Positions 14,872 through 61,891 of a stretch of DNA of 64,000 nt are shown in pieces. Within the stretch, counting starts at the first letter, position 1. Every line of letters starts with the position of its first letter. The stretch is from contig JANQNA010000003.1 of the NCBI GenBank assembly GCA_028279825.1, positions 30,518 through 94,517 of the forward strand. Reading direction: 5' to 3'. The notes under the pieces were generated by a model. The model had not been told where the DNA came from. It made no database searches and saw only the letters and a program-made list of their open reading frames with translations. The DNA is from an archaeon (GTDB taxonomy: Archaea > Aenigmatarchaeota > Aenigmatarchaeia > GW2011-AR5). The translations under genes were made by a program, and so were the position numbers.

Positions 14872-16392
14872 TTAAGCACTATATTCAACTAATTCTTCAC
14901 TTTTTTTCCAAGGTTGTGAATGATTCACTGCTCTATTTTCATAAGTATAACCAAAATCAAATCCCTTACTTGAAACCAAGAATTGTTCTCCATTTCTATC
15001 AAATAATCCTCTTTCCCTAGCACCTTCTAAAAATGTTCTTTGTGCTCTGTAAACTTCATCCTGACATTGTAAGTGATATTCATCATCCCCGACCAACATT
15101 TGATTATATCTACAACCACCACCACAGGAAGTTGAAACATCACATGGTTCACAAGTATCATCGGCCACATCACTTACAAAAGTACTTCTCAATGAAGCAA
15201 AGTCTGGGGTCTCAAATATATTTCCAAATGGTTTTGTTTTTCCAATAGACCAATTGCATCCATATAGATCGCCGTTTGGAGCTATAGTTAATGTTGTCCC
15301 ATCTGTTGGATGGCAGTGAGCATATCTCGGATATGCATCAAAGGGTACCGAACCATCTTTTCTTATTAATCCTTTCGAAGCATGTGCTAAACTTTCTGTG
15401 AATTTTATTCCCTCAAACCTTGTTCTCTCTAGAGCACTTGCCATATCAGGTTTGGAAAGTACATCTATCACAGCTAAAATGTATGCAGCTTCGTTCTCTA
15501 TATTTTGCCCCTGTGTGCTAACTCCACCATAATTCCGAATCAAATTTATTCCATGAACAAAACCTCTTTCATACCATCCTCTCTGTTCCATTTCTTGTAT
15601 ATGTCTTTTAAGATCTCCTAAGCCAGCAATTCCTAAATTTTGTTTTGCCAAAACTCTTACATCCCTATCTAAAAGCTGGTCTATACCCCTTACAACCAAG
15701 TCATAACTTCCTCTATGAGAACCAGGTTTTCCCATTGGTCTTTGAGAATCATGTATTTCCTTGGATCCGTCTAGAGTTATATCAACCTCTGTTATTCTAT
15801 CTCTGTGCCTGGATAACAAATCCAAATACGCTTGATTGATTGTGGCCCCGCTTGTTATAACACTTACATAGTATCCTCTATTTTCAGCTAATTTAAGGAG
15901 GCCTTCATTAAGTTGAAAATTTGCTTGTTGTAGTGGCTCCCCTCCAAAAAGATTCAATGAAATTCTATCTGAAGGTAAGTCTCTGAATTCTCTATAAGCG
16001 CTAATTGCCCTATCTATTTCTCGTATATCTCCTTCTACCAATCTTTTTTTACCACCTTCACTTCTTACATCCTTTTCAAAACAATAAGTACAAGACAGTG
16101 GACATGACATAGTTTCTGTGATAAAGAATGTAGTTGGTCTGGATTCTTGCTTTTTTTCAGCAAATTCTCTCATCTTGTCTTTTTGAATTCTAATTGTATC
16201 TTGTGTATGAAAGAAATGATTAAGATCTGGGTTCAGTTCTCTATCTCTTTTTGAGAAACCCGTTTGAGAATTAAAATCTGTTGAATTAAAGGCATCAGGA
16301 TCAGCTACTAAAACCGAACCTCTTAGTTTATCAACTACAAAAGTATCATTCCCTGTTTCATATACTACGAAATTTCCTTGTTTTTGATCCAT
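14872..16392 (-). CDS. Radical SAM / SPASM-domain protein (peptide-maturase-like) with ~95-aa N-terminal extension
   Basis: CPLSCTYC (Cx3Cx2C) sits at residues ~97-104. The C-terminal SPASM cluster reads HCHPTDG...YGC ... CEPCDVSTSCGGGC. Confidence 0.8.
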   Translation of the reverse strand: MDQKQGNFVVYETGNDTFVVDKLRGSVLVADPDAFNSTDFNSQTGFSKRDRELNPDLNHFFHTQDTIRIQKDKMREFAEKKQESRPTTFFITETMSCPLSCTYCFEKDVRSEGGKKRLVEGDIREIDRAISAYREFRDLPSDRISLNLFGGEPLQQANFQLNEGLLKLAENRGYYVSVITSGATINQAYLDLLSRHRDRITEVDITLDGSKEIHDSQRPMGKPGSHRGSYDLVVRGIDQLLDRDVRVLAKQNLGIAGLGDLKRHIQEMEQRGWYERGFVHGINLIRNYGGVSTQGQNIENEAAYILAVIDVLSKPDMASALERTRFEGIKFTESLAHASKGLIRKDGSVPFDAYPRYAHCHPTDGTTLTIAPNGDLYGCNWSIGKTKPFGNIFETPDFASLRSTFVSDVADDTCEPCDVSTSCGGGCRYNQMLVGDDEYHLQCQDEVYRAQRTFLEGARERGLFDRNGEQFLVSSKGFDFGYTYENRAVNHSQPWKKSEELVEYSA

Positions 16393-39066: not shown

Positions 39067-39214
39067 TGGGCCGCGTGAGATTTGAACTCACGACCTCCTG
39101 CTAACCTAGATCACAACGATGTAAACTGTATGACGCATCTTGAATGCGTCTTTCTACTTCTTATCGTTGTGTGTCATATAAGACAGGTGCTCTACCAGGC
39201 TAAGCTAGCGGCCC
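39067..39214 (-). tRNA. Intron-containing tRNA, anticodon reads TAT (tRNA-Ile UAU) with a 74-nt structured intron at 37/38
   Basis: Reverse complement: GGGCCGC-TA-GCTT-AGCCTGGTA-GAGC-A-CCTGT-CTTATA|intron|A-GCAGG-AGGTC-GTGAG-TTCAAAT-CTCAC-GCGGCCC-A. Exon nt 32-35 CTTA pair with the intron 3' end TAGG to form the 4-bp BHB central helix. The intron holds a 9-bp helix CACAACGAT/ATCGTTGTG and an inner hairpin GACGCAT-tcaag-ATGCGTC. Confidence 0.7.
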
Positions 39215-55589: not shown

Positions 55590-58454
55590 TCAAACCTTGT
55601 CGAACTTAAACCCTACTTTCTTGCTTTCTACTTCCACAAAACTGGTTGGTGACCTTATATCCTCGAATACAACACTGTCTGCACCAACCTTTTCCTTTAT
55701 TTCCTTCCCGTATTTTTCCATAAGTTTGTTATCCAGATGCAGTATTATTCTGTTTGCCACAACAAGACCTTGTTTCTTTCTTTCACTTTGTATCTCTCTC
55801 AAGAGCTCTCTTAGGAGTGCTTCTTCTTTGAGTTCATCGTTTATTTCTACATTAAGGTAAACTGTTGTTTCCCCGACCTTCTTGCTTGGCCATTCCTGCT
55901 TTTCAAAGGAAACTTTCTTCACGTTACACATTATCTTGATTATATCACCCAGTTCTTCAACCTCCTTGGGTACAACAAGCTCACTCAATGGCCATCTTAA
56001 TTTGATGTTTTTCTCCTTTCTTATCATGTTTGCTGCTTCTATAGCCTCCAATGCCTTGTCCATCACGTTCTCAAGTTTTTCGTTATTCTTATCAGGTACT
56101 GGCCATCTTTCCAGATGAACAGATCTTCCTGTCATGTCATGATATATGTGCTCAGAAACAAACGGCGTTAGCGGTGCCATTAACTTGCATAAAATTTCCA
56201 GTGTTTGTGTCAGCACGTAGTTAACTCCCCCGTCCTGTCGGTCTCTTACTATTTTTATGTACGTTCTTGATAGATCATTTATTATGAAGTTCATTAAATT
56301 TCTTGCAACCATATGGAAGTTGAATTTGTCAAGATCCTCTGTTGTTTTAAGTGTTAACGAGTTTATTTTGGAAAGTAACCACTCATCCTCCTTTCTTAAT
56401 TTTGAATCACTCTTTGAAGGTTTTGCGTAAGTCTTGAAGTAGTTGTAAGTGTTCCACAGAATATTCAGGTGTCTGCCAAGATCCTCAGCATTTCTATAAG
56501 AAAACTTTTGGGTTTCCCATGGTGCAATGTCATGGCATATATACAGACGAAGCAGATCCGCACCAAGTTTTTCATATCCATCTTCTGCTGAAATTACATT
56601 CCCAAGACTCTTTGACATTTTTTCTCCCTTTTCGTCAAGAGTCCATCCGTTCAGGCAAACGGTTTCGTAAGGTGCTTCATCAAAGGTAGCAAAGCTGCAT
56701 ATCATTAATGTGTTGAACCACGCTCTTACCTGGTCCTGGCTTTCATCAACAAGATCTATCTTCCAAAGTTTTTCGAAAAGCTCTTTATTCTTGAATGGAT
56801 AACCTAAAGATGCCCACGGAGCAATGCCGGAGTCAAACCATACATCCATGATATCTTTTTCTCTTTGCATCTCCTTACCGCATTCACATTTTATCCTGAC
56901 TTTGTCGACAAAATTCTTGTGAAGATCAAACTTCTCCGGCAAACTTTCTGTAGCGTGTTCCCGCAGCTCCGCCGCGGATCCAATAACCTTCTTAGTTCCG
57001 CACTCACATGTCCATACGGGCAGTGGTATGCCCCAGTATCTTTGTCTGGTCACAGCCCAGTCAGGTGCTTCTGAAATTAAATCATGATATCTTTCACCGG
57101 CAAAACTAGGCAGCCAGTTTATTTTCTTGTTTGCCGCTATTATCTTTTCACGCAGGAGGTCCAATTTCAAAAACCATTGTCTGCTCATTCTGTATATCAG
57201 CGGCGTTTTACACCTCCAACAGAGCGGGTAAGAGTGAACTATTTTCTCCGTATGGAATAATTTACCATCCGCTTTAAGATCCTCAATAATTGTTGGATCA
57301 GCCTTTTTGGCAAACATGCCTTTGTACTTGCCTGCGTCTTCTGTCATACAACCCTTCTCATCTATCGGTGAAATTTCCGGCAGATTGTAGTGCTTACCCA
57401 GTTTGTTGTCCACTTCACCGTGTCCGGGTGCTATATGAACCAGGCCGGTACCTACATCCATCGTTACAATATGACCAAACTCGTCCTTTGCAGCTTCGCC
57501 TTTTGCGACAGTCTTGCTTGCCACCCTTTTCTTCATCACCGGCACTGACAAAAGAACCTGGTGAGAGTTAGGATTCTCCCCTATCTCCTTTTGCGAACCT
57601 GTATCAAGAATTGGCTCATACTTTATTCCCGCCAAATTCTTTCCCTGTATATGCTCTAAAACAGTATAGCCCATTTCCAGTCTTTGAAACTCCTCAAGTC
57701 TCTTTTCACCTATTATCAAAACCTGATCGTTTACCCTTACCTTTACGTAAGTCTCATCCGGATGCACGGCAATGGCAGCATTAGCCGGCAGTGTCCATGG
57801 TGTTGTTGTGAAGACCAATAGATACTCGTTACGGTCACAAATCTTGAATTTTATATAGATAGACGGATCTTCCACATCCTTGTAAGACTCACTGGCTTCT
57901 ATTCCTGCCAAAACAGTTTCACAATGTGGACACCAGAATCCTGGGCGATGACCTTCTACAAACAGACCTTTCTCAAACCATTTCTTTACGGTCCACCAGC
58001 CAGATTCTAAATAATAATTCTCTGATGTAAGGTACGGCTCAAGCCATCCTCTCCATGCAGCAACCTTTTTGTAAAAGTTTAACCATATCGGCTCATTACC
58101 CTTTGCAAAACTATGGCATGCTTGTATGAATTTGTCAACACCAACCTTTGTTTCAATATCACCTTTCGACTTTATACCGAGTTCTTTTTCAACTTTATTC
58201 TCTATCGGCAATCCGCCGCAGTCAAAACCCGGCTGGAACCACACGGCGTAGCCTTGCATGAACTTGAACTTGCCCCAGATATCCTTGAATATTGTAGTTT
58301 TCGCGTGTCCGACGTGCGGCACACCGTTTACGTACGGCGGTCCGTCCAGAAGATAGTATTTCTTGCCTTTTCCCATCCTGACAATCTTGTCAGGTATTTG
58401 TTGATCAGCCCACATCTTTTGGACTTCCTGTTCAACTTCTTTAACATCGTACAT
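55590..58454 (-). CDS. ileS: Isoleucyl-tRNA synthetase
   Basis: DGPPYVNGVPHVGHAKTTIFKDIWGKFKFMQGY...PGFDCGGLPIE...VEKELGI (IleRS HIGH region) and KMSKSLGN. Confidence 0.85.
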   Translation of the reverse strand: MYDVKEVEQEVQKMWADQQIPDKIVRMGKGKKYYLLDGPPYVNGVPHVGHAKTTIFKDIWGKFKFMQGYAVWFQPGFDCGGLPIENKVEKELGIKSKGDIETKVGVDKFIQACHSFAKGNEPIWLNFYKKVAAWRGWLEPYLTSENYYLESGWWTVKKWFEKGLFVEGHRPGFWCPHCETVLAGIEASESYKDVEDPSIYIKFKICDRNEYLLVFTTTPWTLPANAAIAVHPDETYVKVRVNDQVLIIGEKRLEEFQRLEMGYTVLEHIQGKNLAGIKYEPILDTGSQKEIGENPNSHQVLLSVPVMKKRVASKTVAKGEAAKDEFGHIVTMDVGTGLVHIAPGHGEVDNKLGKHYNLPEISPIDEKGCMTEDAGKYKGMFAKKADPTIIEDLKADGKLFHTEKIVHSYPLCWRCKTPLIYRMSRQWFLKLDLLREKIIAANKKINWLPSFAGERYHDLISEAPDWAVTRQRYWGIPLPVWTCECGTKKVIGSAAELREHATESLPEKFDLHKNFVDKVRIKCECGKEMQREKDIMDVWFDSGIAPWASLGYPFKNKELFEKLWKIDLVDESQDQVRAWFNTLMICSFATFDEAPYETVCLNGWTLDEKGEKMSKSLGNVISAEDGYEKLGADLLRLYICHDIAPWETQKFSYRNAEDLGRHLNILWNTYNYFKTYAKPSKSDSKLRKEDEWLLSKINSLTLKTTEDLDKFNFHMVARNLMNFIINDLSRTYIKIVRDRQDGGVNYVLTQTLEILCKLMAPLTPFVSEHIYHDMTGRSVHLERWPVPDKNNEKLENVMDKALEAIEAANMIRKEKNIKLRWPLSELVVPKEVEELGDIIKIMCNVKKVSFEKQEWPSKKVGETTVYLNVEINDELKEEALLRELLREIQSERKKQGLVVANRIILHLDNKLMEKYGKEIKEKVGADSVVFEDIRSPTSFVEVESKKVGFKFDKV

Positions 58455-60140: not shown

Positions 60141-60254
60141 GGCTGCTATGGTGTAGCTTGGTTAGCATATGGGCCTGTGGAAAGCTTTCCATGACTTCAA
60201 AAGCGGAAAGTTTACAGTAAGCCTCTGGGGCGGGTTCAAATCCCGCTAGCAGCC
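60141..60254 (+). tRNA. tRNA-His (GTG) with genomically encoded G-1 and 39-nt canonical BHB intron
   Basis: G-1 pairs with C73. GCTGCTA-TG-GTGT-AGCTTGGTTA-GCAT-A-TGGGC-CTGTGG|39-nt intron|A-GCCTC-TGGG-GCGGG-TTCAAAT-CCCGC-TAGCAGC-C. Exon CTGT pairs with intron ACAG (central helix), and intron AAGCTTTCC pairs with GGAAAGTTT (outer helix). Confidence 0.85.
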
Positions 60255-60652: not shown

Positions 60653-61891
60653 ATGAGTATGAAATTCCAGACACCACGAGGTACAAGAGATTTTCTCCCG
60701 GAAGCAATGATGAAAAGGCATTTCGTTATTGATACTGCCAGGACTGTTTTTGAGAACTGGGGTTTTGATCCCTTAGATACACCGGCTTTTGAAGAATATG
60801 CCCTGCTTACGGCCAAATCCGGAGAAGCAATAAAAGATGAGATATATCATTTTAAGGACAAGTCTGATAGAGATTTAGGTCTACGTTTCGACTTCACTGT
60901 TCCATTGGCACGTGTAGTTGTAAACAATCCTGATATACCAAAACCTTTCCGGAGATACCAGTTAGGTCCTGTGTGGCGTTACGACAGACCAGGATCCGGC
61001 CGTTACCGCGAATTCTGGCAGGCTGATGTCGACATTGTTGGCGCCGAAGGCGCTTCAGCAGACGCGGAAGTTGTGGCTTGTGCCTGTGATGCATTGAGAA
61101 AAATGGGTATGTCCAACTTTTACGTTCGTGTGAATAACAGAAAAATAATCAACGCGTTTCTAGGCAGCCTGAATCTCGTCGCCCCTGACATTCTGCGCAG
61201 CATAGACAAACTGGAGAAAATAGGCGACGATGCTGTCAAAGAAGAACTAAAAGAAAAGGGTGTTGGATCTGACGAAATAGAAGCAGTAATGGATTTTGTT
61301 AAAGGAACCATTAAGGACGCTGGTGATATTCTTGATGACAAAAAAGGGATAGAAGAATTGAAAGAAATGGTTAGTATTCTGGAAAGCTTCCAGATACCTG
61401 TTAAAATTGACCTGAGCATGGTACGTGGTTTAGACTATTACACTGGTAACATTTTTGAAATCAATCAGGAGGGTAGCCTGACGATAACAGCCGGCGGAAG
61501 ATATGATAAAATGATCGAGGGTTTCGGCGGACGTCCTACTTCAGCTACAGGCATATCTCTTGGCGTGGATCGTTTGATCAATTTAGTACAGCTGGAGTTT
61601 GGAAAAACTAAAACTCACGTATATTTAGCCAATGTTAAGAGCAAGGAAAAGGTCCTGGAGATAGCGAAACAGCTGCGTGAAATAGGAATAAACAGTGAAT
61701 ACGACGTAATGGGAAGGTCTCTGTCAAAACAGCTGGAATATGTGAATTCCAAAGGAATCAAGTTCCTGATTGTCGTTGGCGAGAAAGAAATCAGCAGCGG
61801 TGTTGTAAAAATCCGCAACATGTTCAACGGAAATGAGAAGGATATAGAACTGAGAAACCTACAGCGTATAAGAGATCTTGTGGATGAGTAA
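60653..61891 (+). CDS. hisS: Histidyl-tRNA synthetase
   Basis: RGTRDFLPEAMMKRHFV, class II motif 2 YRYDRPGSGRYREFWQ and motif 3 GGRYD. 412 aa. Confidence 0.9.
   Translation: MSMKFQTPRGTRDFLPEAMMKRHFVIDTARTVFENWGFDPLDTPAFEEYALLTAKSGEAIKDEIYHFKDKSDRDLGLRFDFTVPLARVVVNNPDIPKPFRRYQLGPVWRYDRPGSGRYREFWQADVDIVGAEGASADAEVVACACDALRKMGMSNFYVRVNNRKIINAFLGSLNLVAPDILRSIDKLEKIGDDAVKEELKEKGVGSDEIEAVMDFVKGTIKDAGDILDDKKGIEELKEMVSILESFQIPVKIDLSMVRGLDYYTGNIFEINQEGSLTITAGGRYDKMIEGFGGRPTSATGISLGVDRLINLVQLEFGKTKTHVYLANVKSKEKVLEIAKQLREIGINSEYDVMGRSLSKQLEYVNSKGIKFLIVVGEKEISSGVVKIRNMFNGNEKDIELRNLQRIRDLVDE

Follow-up and report, generated by a model that had tools for sequence, protein, structure and literature searches.

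The 64-kb stretch of DNA analysed here (referred to as the window) comes from an Aenigmatarchaeota (DPANN) archaeon and carries on its minus strand an intron-containing tRNA gene, which is composed of a 38-nt 5′ exon, a 74-nt intron and a 36-nt 3′ exon and does not encode the CCA end (Table 1). A thermosome gene is located immediately downstream. The named proteins most similar to its product bear the labels Aenigmarchaeota or Aenigmatarchaeota (in one case simply 'archaeon'), and one protein is 100% identical to it. The tRNA gene is one of four tRNAs detected by Rfam in the window, where seven aminoacyl-tRNA synthetases, ribosomal proteins L1, L10 and P1, Topoisomerase VI, FtsZ, Nop5 and fibrillarin are also encoded; the window is a typical archaeal informational region. 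In addition, a radical SAM/SPASM protein of 506 aa is encoded at 14872-16392 (minus strand). This protein resembles RiPP peptide maturases and is unexpected in a reduced DPANN genome; all of its NCBIfam matches are far below the curated cut-offs.

Table 1. Coordinates, in the window, of the tRNA-Ile(UAU) gene, its parts and its presumed charging enzyme
Feature	Position	Strand	Basis or remark
Whole tRNA-Ile(UAU) gene	39067..39214	minus	148 nt; Rfam RF00005, 53.4 bits; ARAGORN intron mode (-i), tRNA-Ile(tat)
5′ exon	39177..39214	minus	tRNA positions 1-37; Rfam alignment and sequence
Anticodon U34 A35 U36 (TAT on minus strand)	39178..39180	minus	Rfam, sequence, ARAGORN -i
Intron, 74 nt	39103..39176	minus	Rfam, ARAGORN -i, BHB geometry from sequence
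Central BHB helix, exon strand C32 U33 U34 A35	39179..39182	minus	Pairs with UAGG at 39105-39108
Central BHB helix, intron strand UAGG	39105..39108	minus	Sequence and orthologue pairing
5′ three-nt bulge U36 A37 / U(i1), 5′ splice site UA/U	39176..39178	minus	Sequence, constrained fold
3′ three-nt bulge U U / A38, 3′ splice site UU/A	39102..39104	minus	Sequence, constrained fold
Intron stem 1, 5′ strand CACAACGAU	39163..39171	minus	Pairs with 39112-39120
Intron stem 1, 3′ strand AUCGUUGUG	39112..39120	minus	Orthologue covariation
Apical hairpin GACGCAU-UCAAG-AUGCGUC, within stem 1 loop	39132..39150	minus	Sequence, fold
3′ exon	39067..39102	minus	Rfam alignment and sequence
Isoleucyl-tRNA synthetase, presumed charging enzyme	55590..58454	minus	NCBIfam TIGR00392 ileS, 791 bits against a cut-off of 621

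Identity and anticodon of the tRNA

The whole window was searched with Rfam, and the result showed that the RF00005 model matched the locus over its full length (1-71) with a score above the curated threshold (53.4 bits against a gathering score of 29; E = 1.2e-8), with a 75-nt insertion falling in the anticodon loop. ARAGORN made no call at 39067-39214 in its default mode; in intron mode it reported a tRNA-Ile(tat) with a 74-nt intron placed one base off. Since BHB geometry plays no part in its calls, intron mode also assigned several orthologues and homologues wrongly, to Thr, Ser, Ala, Tyr or Asn. Intron boundaries were taken from the BHB reading and not from ARAGORN. The presence of a tRNA at this position had been claimed in the original prediction and was borne out by Rfam and by ARAGORN in intron mode, although the prediction had not given the strand.

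The 5′ exon, GGGCCGCUAGCUUAGCCUGGUAGAGCACCUGUCUUAUA, is divided into GGGCCGC-UA-GCUU-AGCCUGGUA-GAGC-A-CCUGU-CUUAUA and comprises the acceptor 5′ strand GGGCCGC, the D arm, the anticodon stem 5′ strand CCUGU and the loop bases C32 U33 U34 A35 U36 A37. The 3′ exon, AGCAGGAGGUCGUGAGUUCAAAUCUCACGCGGCCCA, is divided into A-GCAGG-AGGUC-GUGAG-UUCAAAU-CUCAC-GCGGCCC-A, namely A38, the anticodon stem 3′ strand GCAGG, the variable loop AGGUC, the T arm GUGAG-UUCAAAU-CUCAC, the acceptor 3′ strand GCGGCCC and the discriminator A73. The spliced loop thus reads C32 U33 U34 A35 U36 A37 A38, with the anticodon UAU followed by a purine at position 37. The 81 nt separating the anticodon-stem strands were divided into exon and intron in every possible way, and the result showed that a purine at position 37 was obtained only with UAU, which upholds the UAU anticodon predicted originally. 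Splits giving UGU or GGU were ruled out by a U at position 37 and by their misfit to the BHB.

Bases of the Ile type (A73, the GGGCC acceptor, C4-G69 and U12-A23) are present, the comparison set being that of E. coli and archaeal tRNA-Ile. A GGGCC acceptor start and an A73 discriminator are typical of archaeal tRNA-Ile. As read from the sequence, the assignment to isoleucine rests on the anticodon, on A73 together with the GGGCC acceptor body, and on homology to the DPANN Ile(UAU) group. Inspection of the region upstream of the gene revealed no clear archaeal TATA box at about -30.

The splicing motif and the evolution of the intron

The 74-nt intron, UGACACACAACGAUAAGAAGUAGAAAGACGCAUUCAAGAUGCGUCAUACAGUUUACAUCGUUGUGAUCUAGGUU, has the ends UGACAC...CUAGGUU. 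Together with the exons it forms a strict hBHBh′ motif, in which two 3-nt bulges on opposite strands are separated by a 4-bp central helix, CUUA/UAGG, made of the pairs C-G, U.G, U-A and A-U. The outer helix of the BHB is the anticodon stem, and the inner helix consists of GA/UC followed by the 9-bp helix CACAACGAU/AUCGUUGUG (stem 1), within whose loop the 7-bp apical hairpin is found. In this geometry the cuts fall after A37 and before A38, that is, at the canonical position 37/38, and the insertion in the Rfam alignment falls in the same place. A 74-nt intron at 37/38, the pairing of exon CTTA with TAGG near the intron 3′ end, and a 9-bp helix surrounding a perfect hairpin had all been proposed beforehand; the intron agrees with the BHB geometry, the Rfam insertion and ARAGORN in intron mode, and the pairing and both helices were recovered when the minus-strand sequence was read. 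The fold of the pre-tRNA gave z = -5.6 versus shuffles. When it was constrained to the cloverleaf and the BHB, the free energy was -54.2 kcal/mol, with the unconstrained minimum 3.4 kcal/mol lower, and the intron folded alone gave -22.3 kcal/mol.

The same tRNA gene was found in five related contigs (L128, L131, L132, L134 and L135), which were recovered by a metagenome pattern scan and by look-ups of thermosome homologues. Synteny is kept in four of these five orthologues, which sit upstream of a thermosome gene. A core alignment of six sequences (the window and the five orthologues), from which the variable inner parts of the intron had been cut out by hand, showed standard pairs in 97.7% of pair cells and two-sided changes at 10 pairs, compared to 0-2 when the partners were slid by 1-3 columns. 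The four cloverleaf stems were 93-100% paired in the six orthologues and the central BHB helix was paired in 95.8% of cells. The anticodon loop CUUAUA..A was invariant in all six, and six of the nine pairs of stem 1 showed compensatory, two-sided changes. The conservation and covariation across orthologues imply that the gene is under selection for a working tRNA with a UAU anticodon. The locus is probably (at a probability of roughly 0.85) a functional gene for an intron-containing tRNA-Ile(UAU) of an Aenigmatarchaeota archaeon.

The introns of the six orthologues are 47, 62, 74, 85, 107 and 123 nt long, and the elements common to them are the BHB, a short h′ helix and stem 1. The h′ helix is GACA/UGUC in the orthologues and is reduced to GA/UC in the window. 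Stem 1 is a helix of 9-10 bp that always has the closing GAU...AUC. It is capped by a 10-nt A-rich loop without an apical hairpin in L132, L134 and L135; of the six genes, those of the window, L131 and L128 alone have the apical hairpin, in which L131 shows one compensatory replacement of A-U by G-C. Unrelated hairpins have been added 3′ of stem 1 in L128, L131, L134 and L135. The simplest reading is that the long intron arose in this lineage by elaboration of the motif's inner (h′) hairpin, and that the intron evolves fast, with base-proximal helices constrained by splicing and distal hairpins gained and lost quickly.

In the public assemblies, the long-intron tRNAs of L131, L132 and L134 have probably been left unannotated. 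Short genes without a Pfam match are called in the spacer between tRNA-Ile(UAU) and the thermosome gene (L134 1140-1469 and L132 1118-1312), and they may be spurious because of the lack of such a match. In L131, a called methyltransferase gene (594-1274) overlaps the tRNA 3′ end by about 20 nt.

The window holds a second intron-containing tRNA gene, encoding tRNA-His(GUG) at 60141-60254 (plus strand), with a 39-nt intron at 37/38, a strict BHB with a CUGU/ACAG central helix, a 9-bp inner helix and a genome-encoded G-1 opposite C73. ARAGORN in intron mode miscalled it as Tyr(gta). The hisS gene (60653-61891, plus strand; TIGR00442, 408 bits) lies directly downstream. Part of the tRNA-His intron (60182-60210, plus strand) shares identical blocks of 10 bases, AAGCTTTCCA, and 11 bases, AAAGCGGAAAG, with L132 719-751 (plus strand), where an intron splits the D-loop of the tRNA-Ile(UAU) orthologue. 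The shared-block pattern had one match in 135 loci and none in 100 shuffles of the window. This sequence similarity suggests that tRNA introns may move between genes and positions in Aenigmatarchaeota. Movement of tRNA introns is said to have been described for Thermoproteales.

AUA decoding and the distribution of tRNA-Ile(UAU)

A classic problem in decoding is how to read AUA as isoleucine and yet keep AUG from being misread as such. It is known to be solved by lysidine, by agmatidine, by inosine/pseudouridine, or by an unmodified U together with adaptation of the ribosome and IleRS. Codon use was counted in 52 ORFs (17,377 codons) of the window, which has 41% G+C. The result showed that ATA accounts for 746 of the 1267 Ile codons (59%), or 42.9 per 1000 codons, and that ATG is rarer, at 23.7 per 1000. 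In the thermosome gene, 27 of the 47 Ile codons are ATA. Since ATA is the commonest Ile codon in the window, tRNA-Ile(UAU) is probably a major tRNA. The IleRS, which is encoded 16 kb from the tRNA gene, is of the eukaryote/archaeal type and contains the Pfam domains tRNA-synt_1, Anticodon_1 and DUF5915. No TiaS-family match was found among the 52 ORFs scanned in the 64-kb window, and no CAU tRNA among its four tRNAs.

Following what is known of archaeal tRNA splicing (PMC11408192), the primary transcript is predicted to fold into a cloverleaf whose anticodon arm is extended into the strict hBHBh′ motif. The archaeal splicing endonuclease would cut both 3-nt bulges, at the UA/U and UU/A sites, as in the ARMAN-2 analogue, and a ligase, presumably of the RtcB type, would join the exons to give the loop C-U-UAU-A-A. 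CCA would be added after transcription. The nearby IleRS would then charge the tRNA, and the mature tRNA-Ile(UAU) would read AUA, with the agmatidine system, on the ARMAN precedent, presumably absent.

This precedent dates from 2011, when tRNA-Ile(UAU) was reported to be present, and TiaS and tRNA-Ile2(CAU) absent, in ARMAN-2, ARMAN-4 and ARMAN-5 (PMC3239211). The ARMAN-2 (Candidatus Micrarchaeum) precursor resembles that of the window in that it belongs to a DPANN archaeon, has a UAU anticodon that serves to decode AUA in a lineage reported to have neither TiaS nor tRNA-Ile2(CAU), and bears a single intron at 37/38 with a strict hBHBh′ motif (PMC3239211). It is cleaved in vitro and is a standard in vitro substrate of the ARMAN-2 endonuclease (PMC3239211; PMC12397907). 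However, the ARMAN-2 intron has 25 nt, compared to 74 nt in the window, where a further stem and an apical hairpin are present; the phylum is a different one; and the cleavage in vitro is that of ARMAN-2, whereas the window gene is known from its sequence. In Nanoarchaeum equitans as well as in Korarchaeum cryptofilum (where the tRNA is called 'Ile3'), a genomic UAU likewise replaces the CAU/agmatidine system (PMC8450103; PMC6000648), and the Korarchaeum tRNA-Ile(UAU) gene has an intron, as does the window gene (PMC6000648). These two belong to other lineages, and their intron sequences are apparently unrelated to that of the window; moreover, their complete genomes establish that tRNA-Ile2(CAU) is absent, whereas the window covers 64 kb. 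The bacterium Mycoplasma mobile also uses a tRNA-Ile2(UAU) in place of the modified-C system and reads AUA without lysidine or agmatidine, but its tRNA is intron-less and has an unmodified U34, with the specificity for AUA coming from Arg865 of IleRS and from the ribosome (PMC3575796). Among the 15 publications listed by a literature search, none combined agmatidine or lysidine with DPANN or CPR.

The distribution of the tRNA was determined by scanning species-representative genomes with a D-arm plus CUUAUA pattern, which gives counts that are lower bounds. The scan yielded at least 120 matches (L003-L122). At least 43 matches were archaeal, nearly all labelled DPANN and at least four of them Aenigmatarchaeota. 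The labels among the archaeal matches listed were Aenigmat-, Woese-, Micr-, Nano-, Pace- and Iainarchaeota, one Marsarchaeota and three Methanosarcinales MAGs. An intron in the anticodon loop was present in about 31 of the 43 archaeal matches listed, with lengths of 16-79 nt and a median in the mid-30s, so the window intron, with 74 nt, is close to the upper limit. No intron was present in about 12 of the 43, most of them from Micrarchaeota and Iainarchaeia. The introns of L005, L026, L033, L066, L090 and L092 were delimited by a T-arm-anchored parser and by eye. At least 78 further matches lay in records not labelled archaeal, mostly CPR/Patescibacteria, and 67 of the 78 non-archaeal matches listed had a contiguous, intron-less anticodon arm. 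Bacteria, mostly CPR/Patescibacteria MAGs, made up about two thirds of the matches listed. UAU may therefore be a widespread means of decoding AUA in the two ultra-small lineages, DPANN and CPR.

A genomically encoded UAU tRNA-Ile had originally been considered rare among archaea. This holds only for cultured archaea and does not hold for DPANN. In one survey of 167 archaeal genomes, it was found in two, those of Nanoarchaeum and Korarchaeum (PMC6000648; PMC8450103). Given the ARMAN precedent and the 43 or more, mostly DPANN, matches, the window gene is ordinary for its lineage. It is a new Aenigmatarchaeota example of the UAU solution known from ARMAN, Nanoarchaeum and Korarchaeum.

Several other features of these genes were observed. 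The three matches labelled 'uncultured Methanosarcinales' (MAGs L046, L072 and L100) carry an intron-containing tRNA-Ile(UAU) that closely resembles Woesearchaeota/Nanoarchaeia genes, a possible sign of taxonomic mislabelling or of mis-binned contigs. A second intron besides that at 37/38 was found in L046, L057, L081, L090, L096, L100 and L107 (in the T-arm) and in L026 (after the variable loop); such two-intron DPANN tRNA-Ile(UAU) genes were handled correctly neither by ARAGORN nor by a simple parser. In an AT-rich groundwater clade (L123, L125-L127, L129 and L130), tRNA-Glu(UUC) directly follows the intron-containing tRNA-Ile(UAU). This tRNA-Glu(UUC) has an intron in every copy called by ARAGORN, which made no call in L130. 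Loci of Woese-, Pace- and Nanoarchaeia show the Ile(UAU)-Glu(UUC) pairing as well.

Possible roles of the intron

By analogy with the eukaryotic nuclear tRNA-Ile(UAU), anticodon modification might depend on the intron or be blocked by it, and this might be why the intron is retained; U34 would thereby be tuned to AUA and not AUG. The eukaryotic tRNA resembles that of the window in that the intron lies directly 3′ of position 37, the anticodon is paired with the intron, and IleRS is of the eukaryote/archaeal type. In yeast, the precursor that still contains the intron is the only one on which Pus1 forms pseudouridine 34 and 36, and the intron keeps ncm5U34 from being formed (PMC11408192); the tRNA of the window is not known to depend on its intron in this way. 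Eukaryotic splicing also differs in that it uses a ruler mechanism rather than strict BHB recognition. In all six orthologues, the central BHB helix pairs U34 and A35 with the intron, as it does in most DPANN UAU genes with introns. In haloarchaea, engineered U34 variants of tRNA-Ile acquire cnm5U and bind AUG too (PMC3895270), implying that an unprotected U34 is risky. The frequency of anticodon-loop introns (31 of the 43 archaeal tRNA-Ile(UAU) genes listed) was compared with that in the other tRNAs found by ARAGORN at the same loci (6 of 22, a lower bound because ARAGORN under-detects intron-containing tRNAs), giving Fisher p = 0.0012 in a test that ignores phylogenetic relatedness. However, the intron-less genes among the archaeal matches listed imply that the intron is not obligatory. 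Taken together, a role in anticodon modification is possible but unlikely, and it is doubtful that DPANN archaea with a genomic UAU keep the 37/38 intron preferentially so that U34-A35 pairing directs or blocks modification before splicing.

It had also been suggested that the intron could host a small RNA. Such an RNA might be a guide of the C/D-box or H/ACA-like type, or a hairpin that is set free by splicing and binds a protein. A box C/D RNA in a tRNA-Trp intron provides the precedent: the Haloferax volcanii tRNA-Trp intron is, like that of the window, a long structured archaeal intron at the anticodon loop, but it carries C and D boxes and guides 2′-O-methylation of C34 and U39 (PMC11408192). 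The length and strong structure of the window intron, the covariation of stem 1, the apical hairpin kept in three orthologues with its compensatory change, and the C/D RNP proteins Nop5 and fibrillarin encoded in the window are all consistent with such a function. However, covariation beside the BHB is expected from splicing alone. A regular-expression search of the intron detected no C box (RUGAUGA), relaxed UGAUG or D box (CUGA). Inspection revealed neither an ACA box 3′ of the lower stem, where AUCUAGG is found, nor a K-turn; a pocket-like internal loop is present, but the upper stem is fully Watson-Crick and lacks tandem G.A pairs. Among the Rfam matches in the region at E<=10, only the tRNA family was credible, with no snoRNA or sRNA. 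The orthologous introns share only the BHB, h′ and stem 1, the hairpin being replaced by a 10-nt loop in three of the six, and the hairpin/stem-1 module was found nowhere else in 968 kb (the window and the loci). A small RNA in the intron is therefore very unlikely, and that part of the original prediction was not supported: the motifs and the Rfam match are missing, and the inner part of the intron is not conserved even among close relatives.

Two other candidates in this region were rejected. A RAGATH-27 match upstream was noise (16.9 bits against a gathering score of 76; E = 8.8), and an origin of the hairpin/stem-1 module from a repeated or mobile element was discarded on the finding that, in the 968 kb, the module occurs only in orthologous Ile(UAU) introns.

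That the locus is a redundant or decaying copy, dispensable or a pseudogene in a genome that also has tRNA-Ile2(CAU) and TiaS, is most improbable: tiaS and CAU tRNAs could lie outside the 64 kb visible, and in some bacteria a tRNA-Ile(UAU) gene coexists with the lysidine system (TilS) (PMC3575796), but in six orthologues the BHB and the four cloverleaf stems are all intact and show covariation, with an invariant anticodon loop, the synteny of the gene is retained, ATA is the major Ile codon of the 52 window ORFs, which gave no TiaS-family match, and other DPANN archaea (ARMAN) lack both TiaS and tRNA-Ile2(CAU) (PMC3239211).

As a probably functional gene for tRNA-Ile(UAU), the single locus presents nothing outside known biology. 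Together with the genome scan, it suggests that UAU tRNA-Ile is widespread in reduced DPANN genomes and also in CPR bacteria. If the intron did act in anticodon modification, it would represent a counterpart in archaea, and perhaps a forerunner, of the eukaryotic intron-dependent pathway for pseudouridine 34/36, and the covarying intron helix of the Aenigmatarchaeota clade would be a recognition platform rather than filler. The frequent 37/38 intron offers a connection, open to testing, with the anticodon modification that depends on the intron in eukaryotic tRNA-Ile(UAU).
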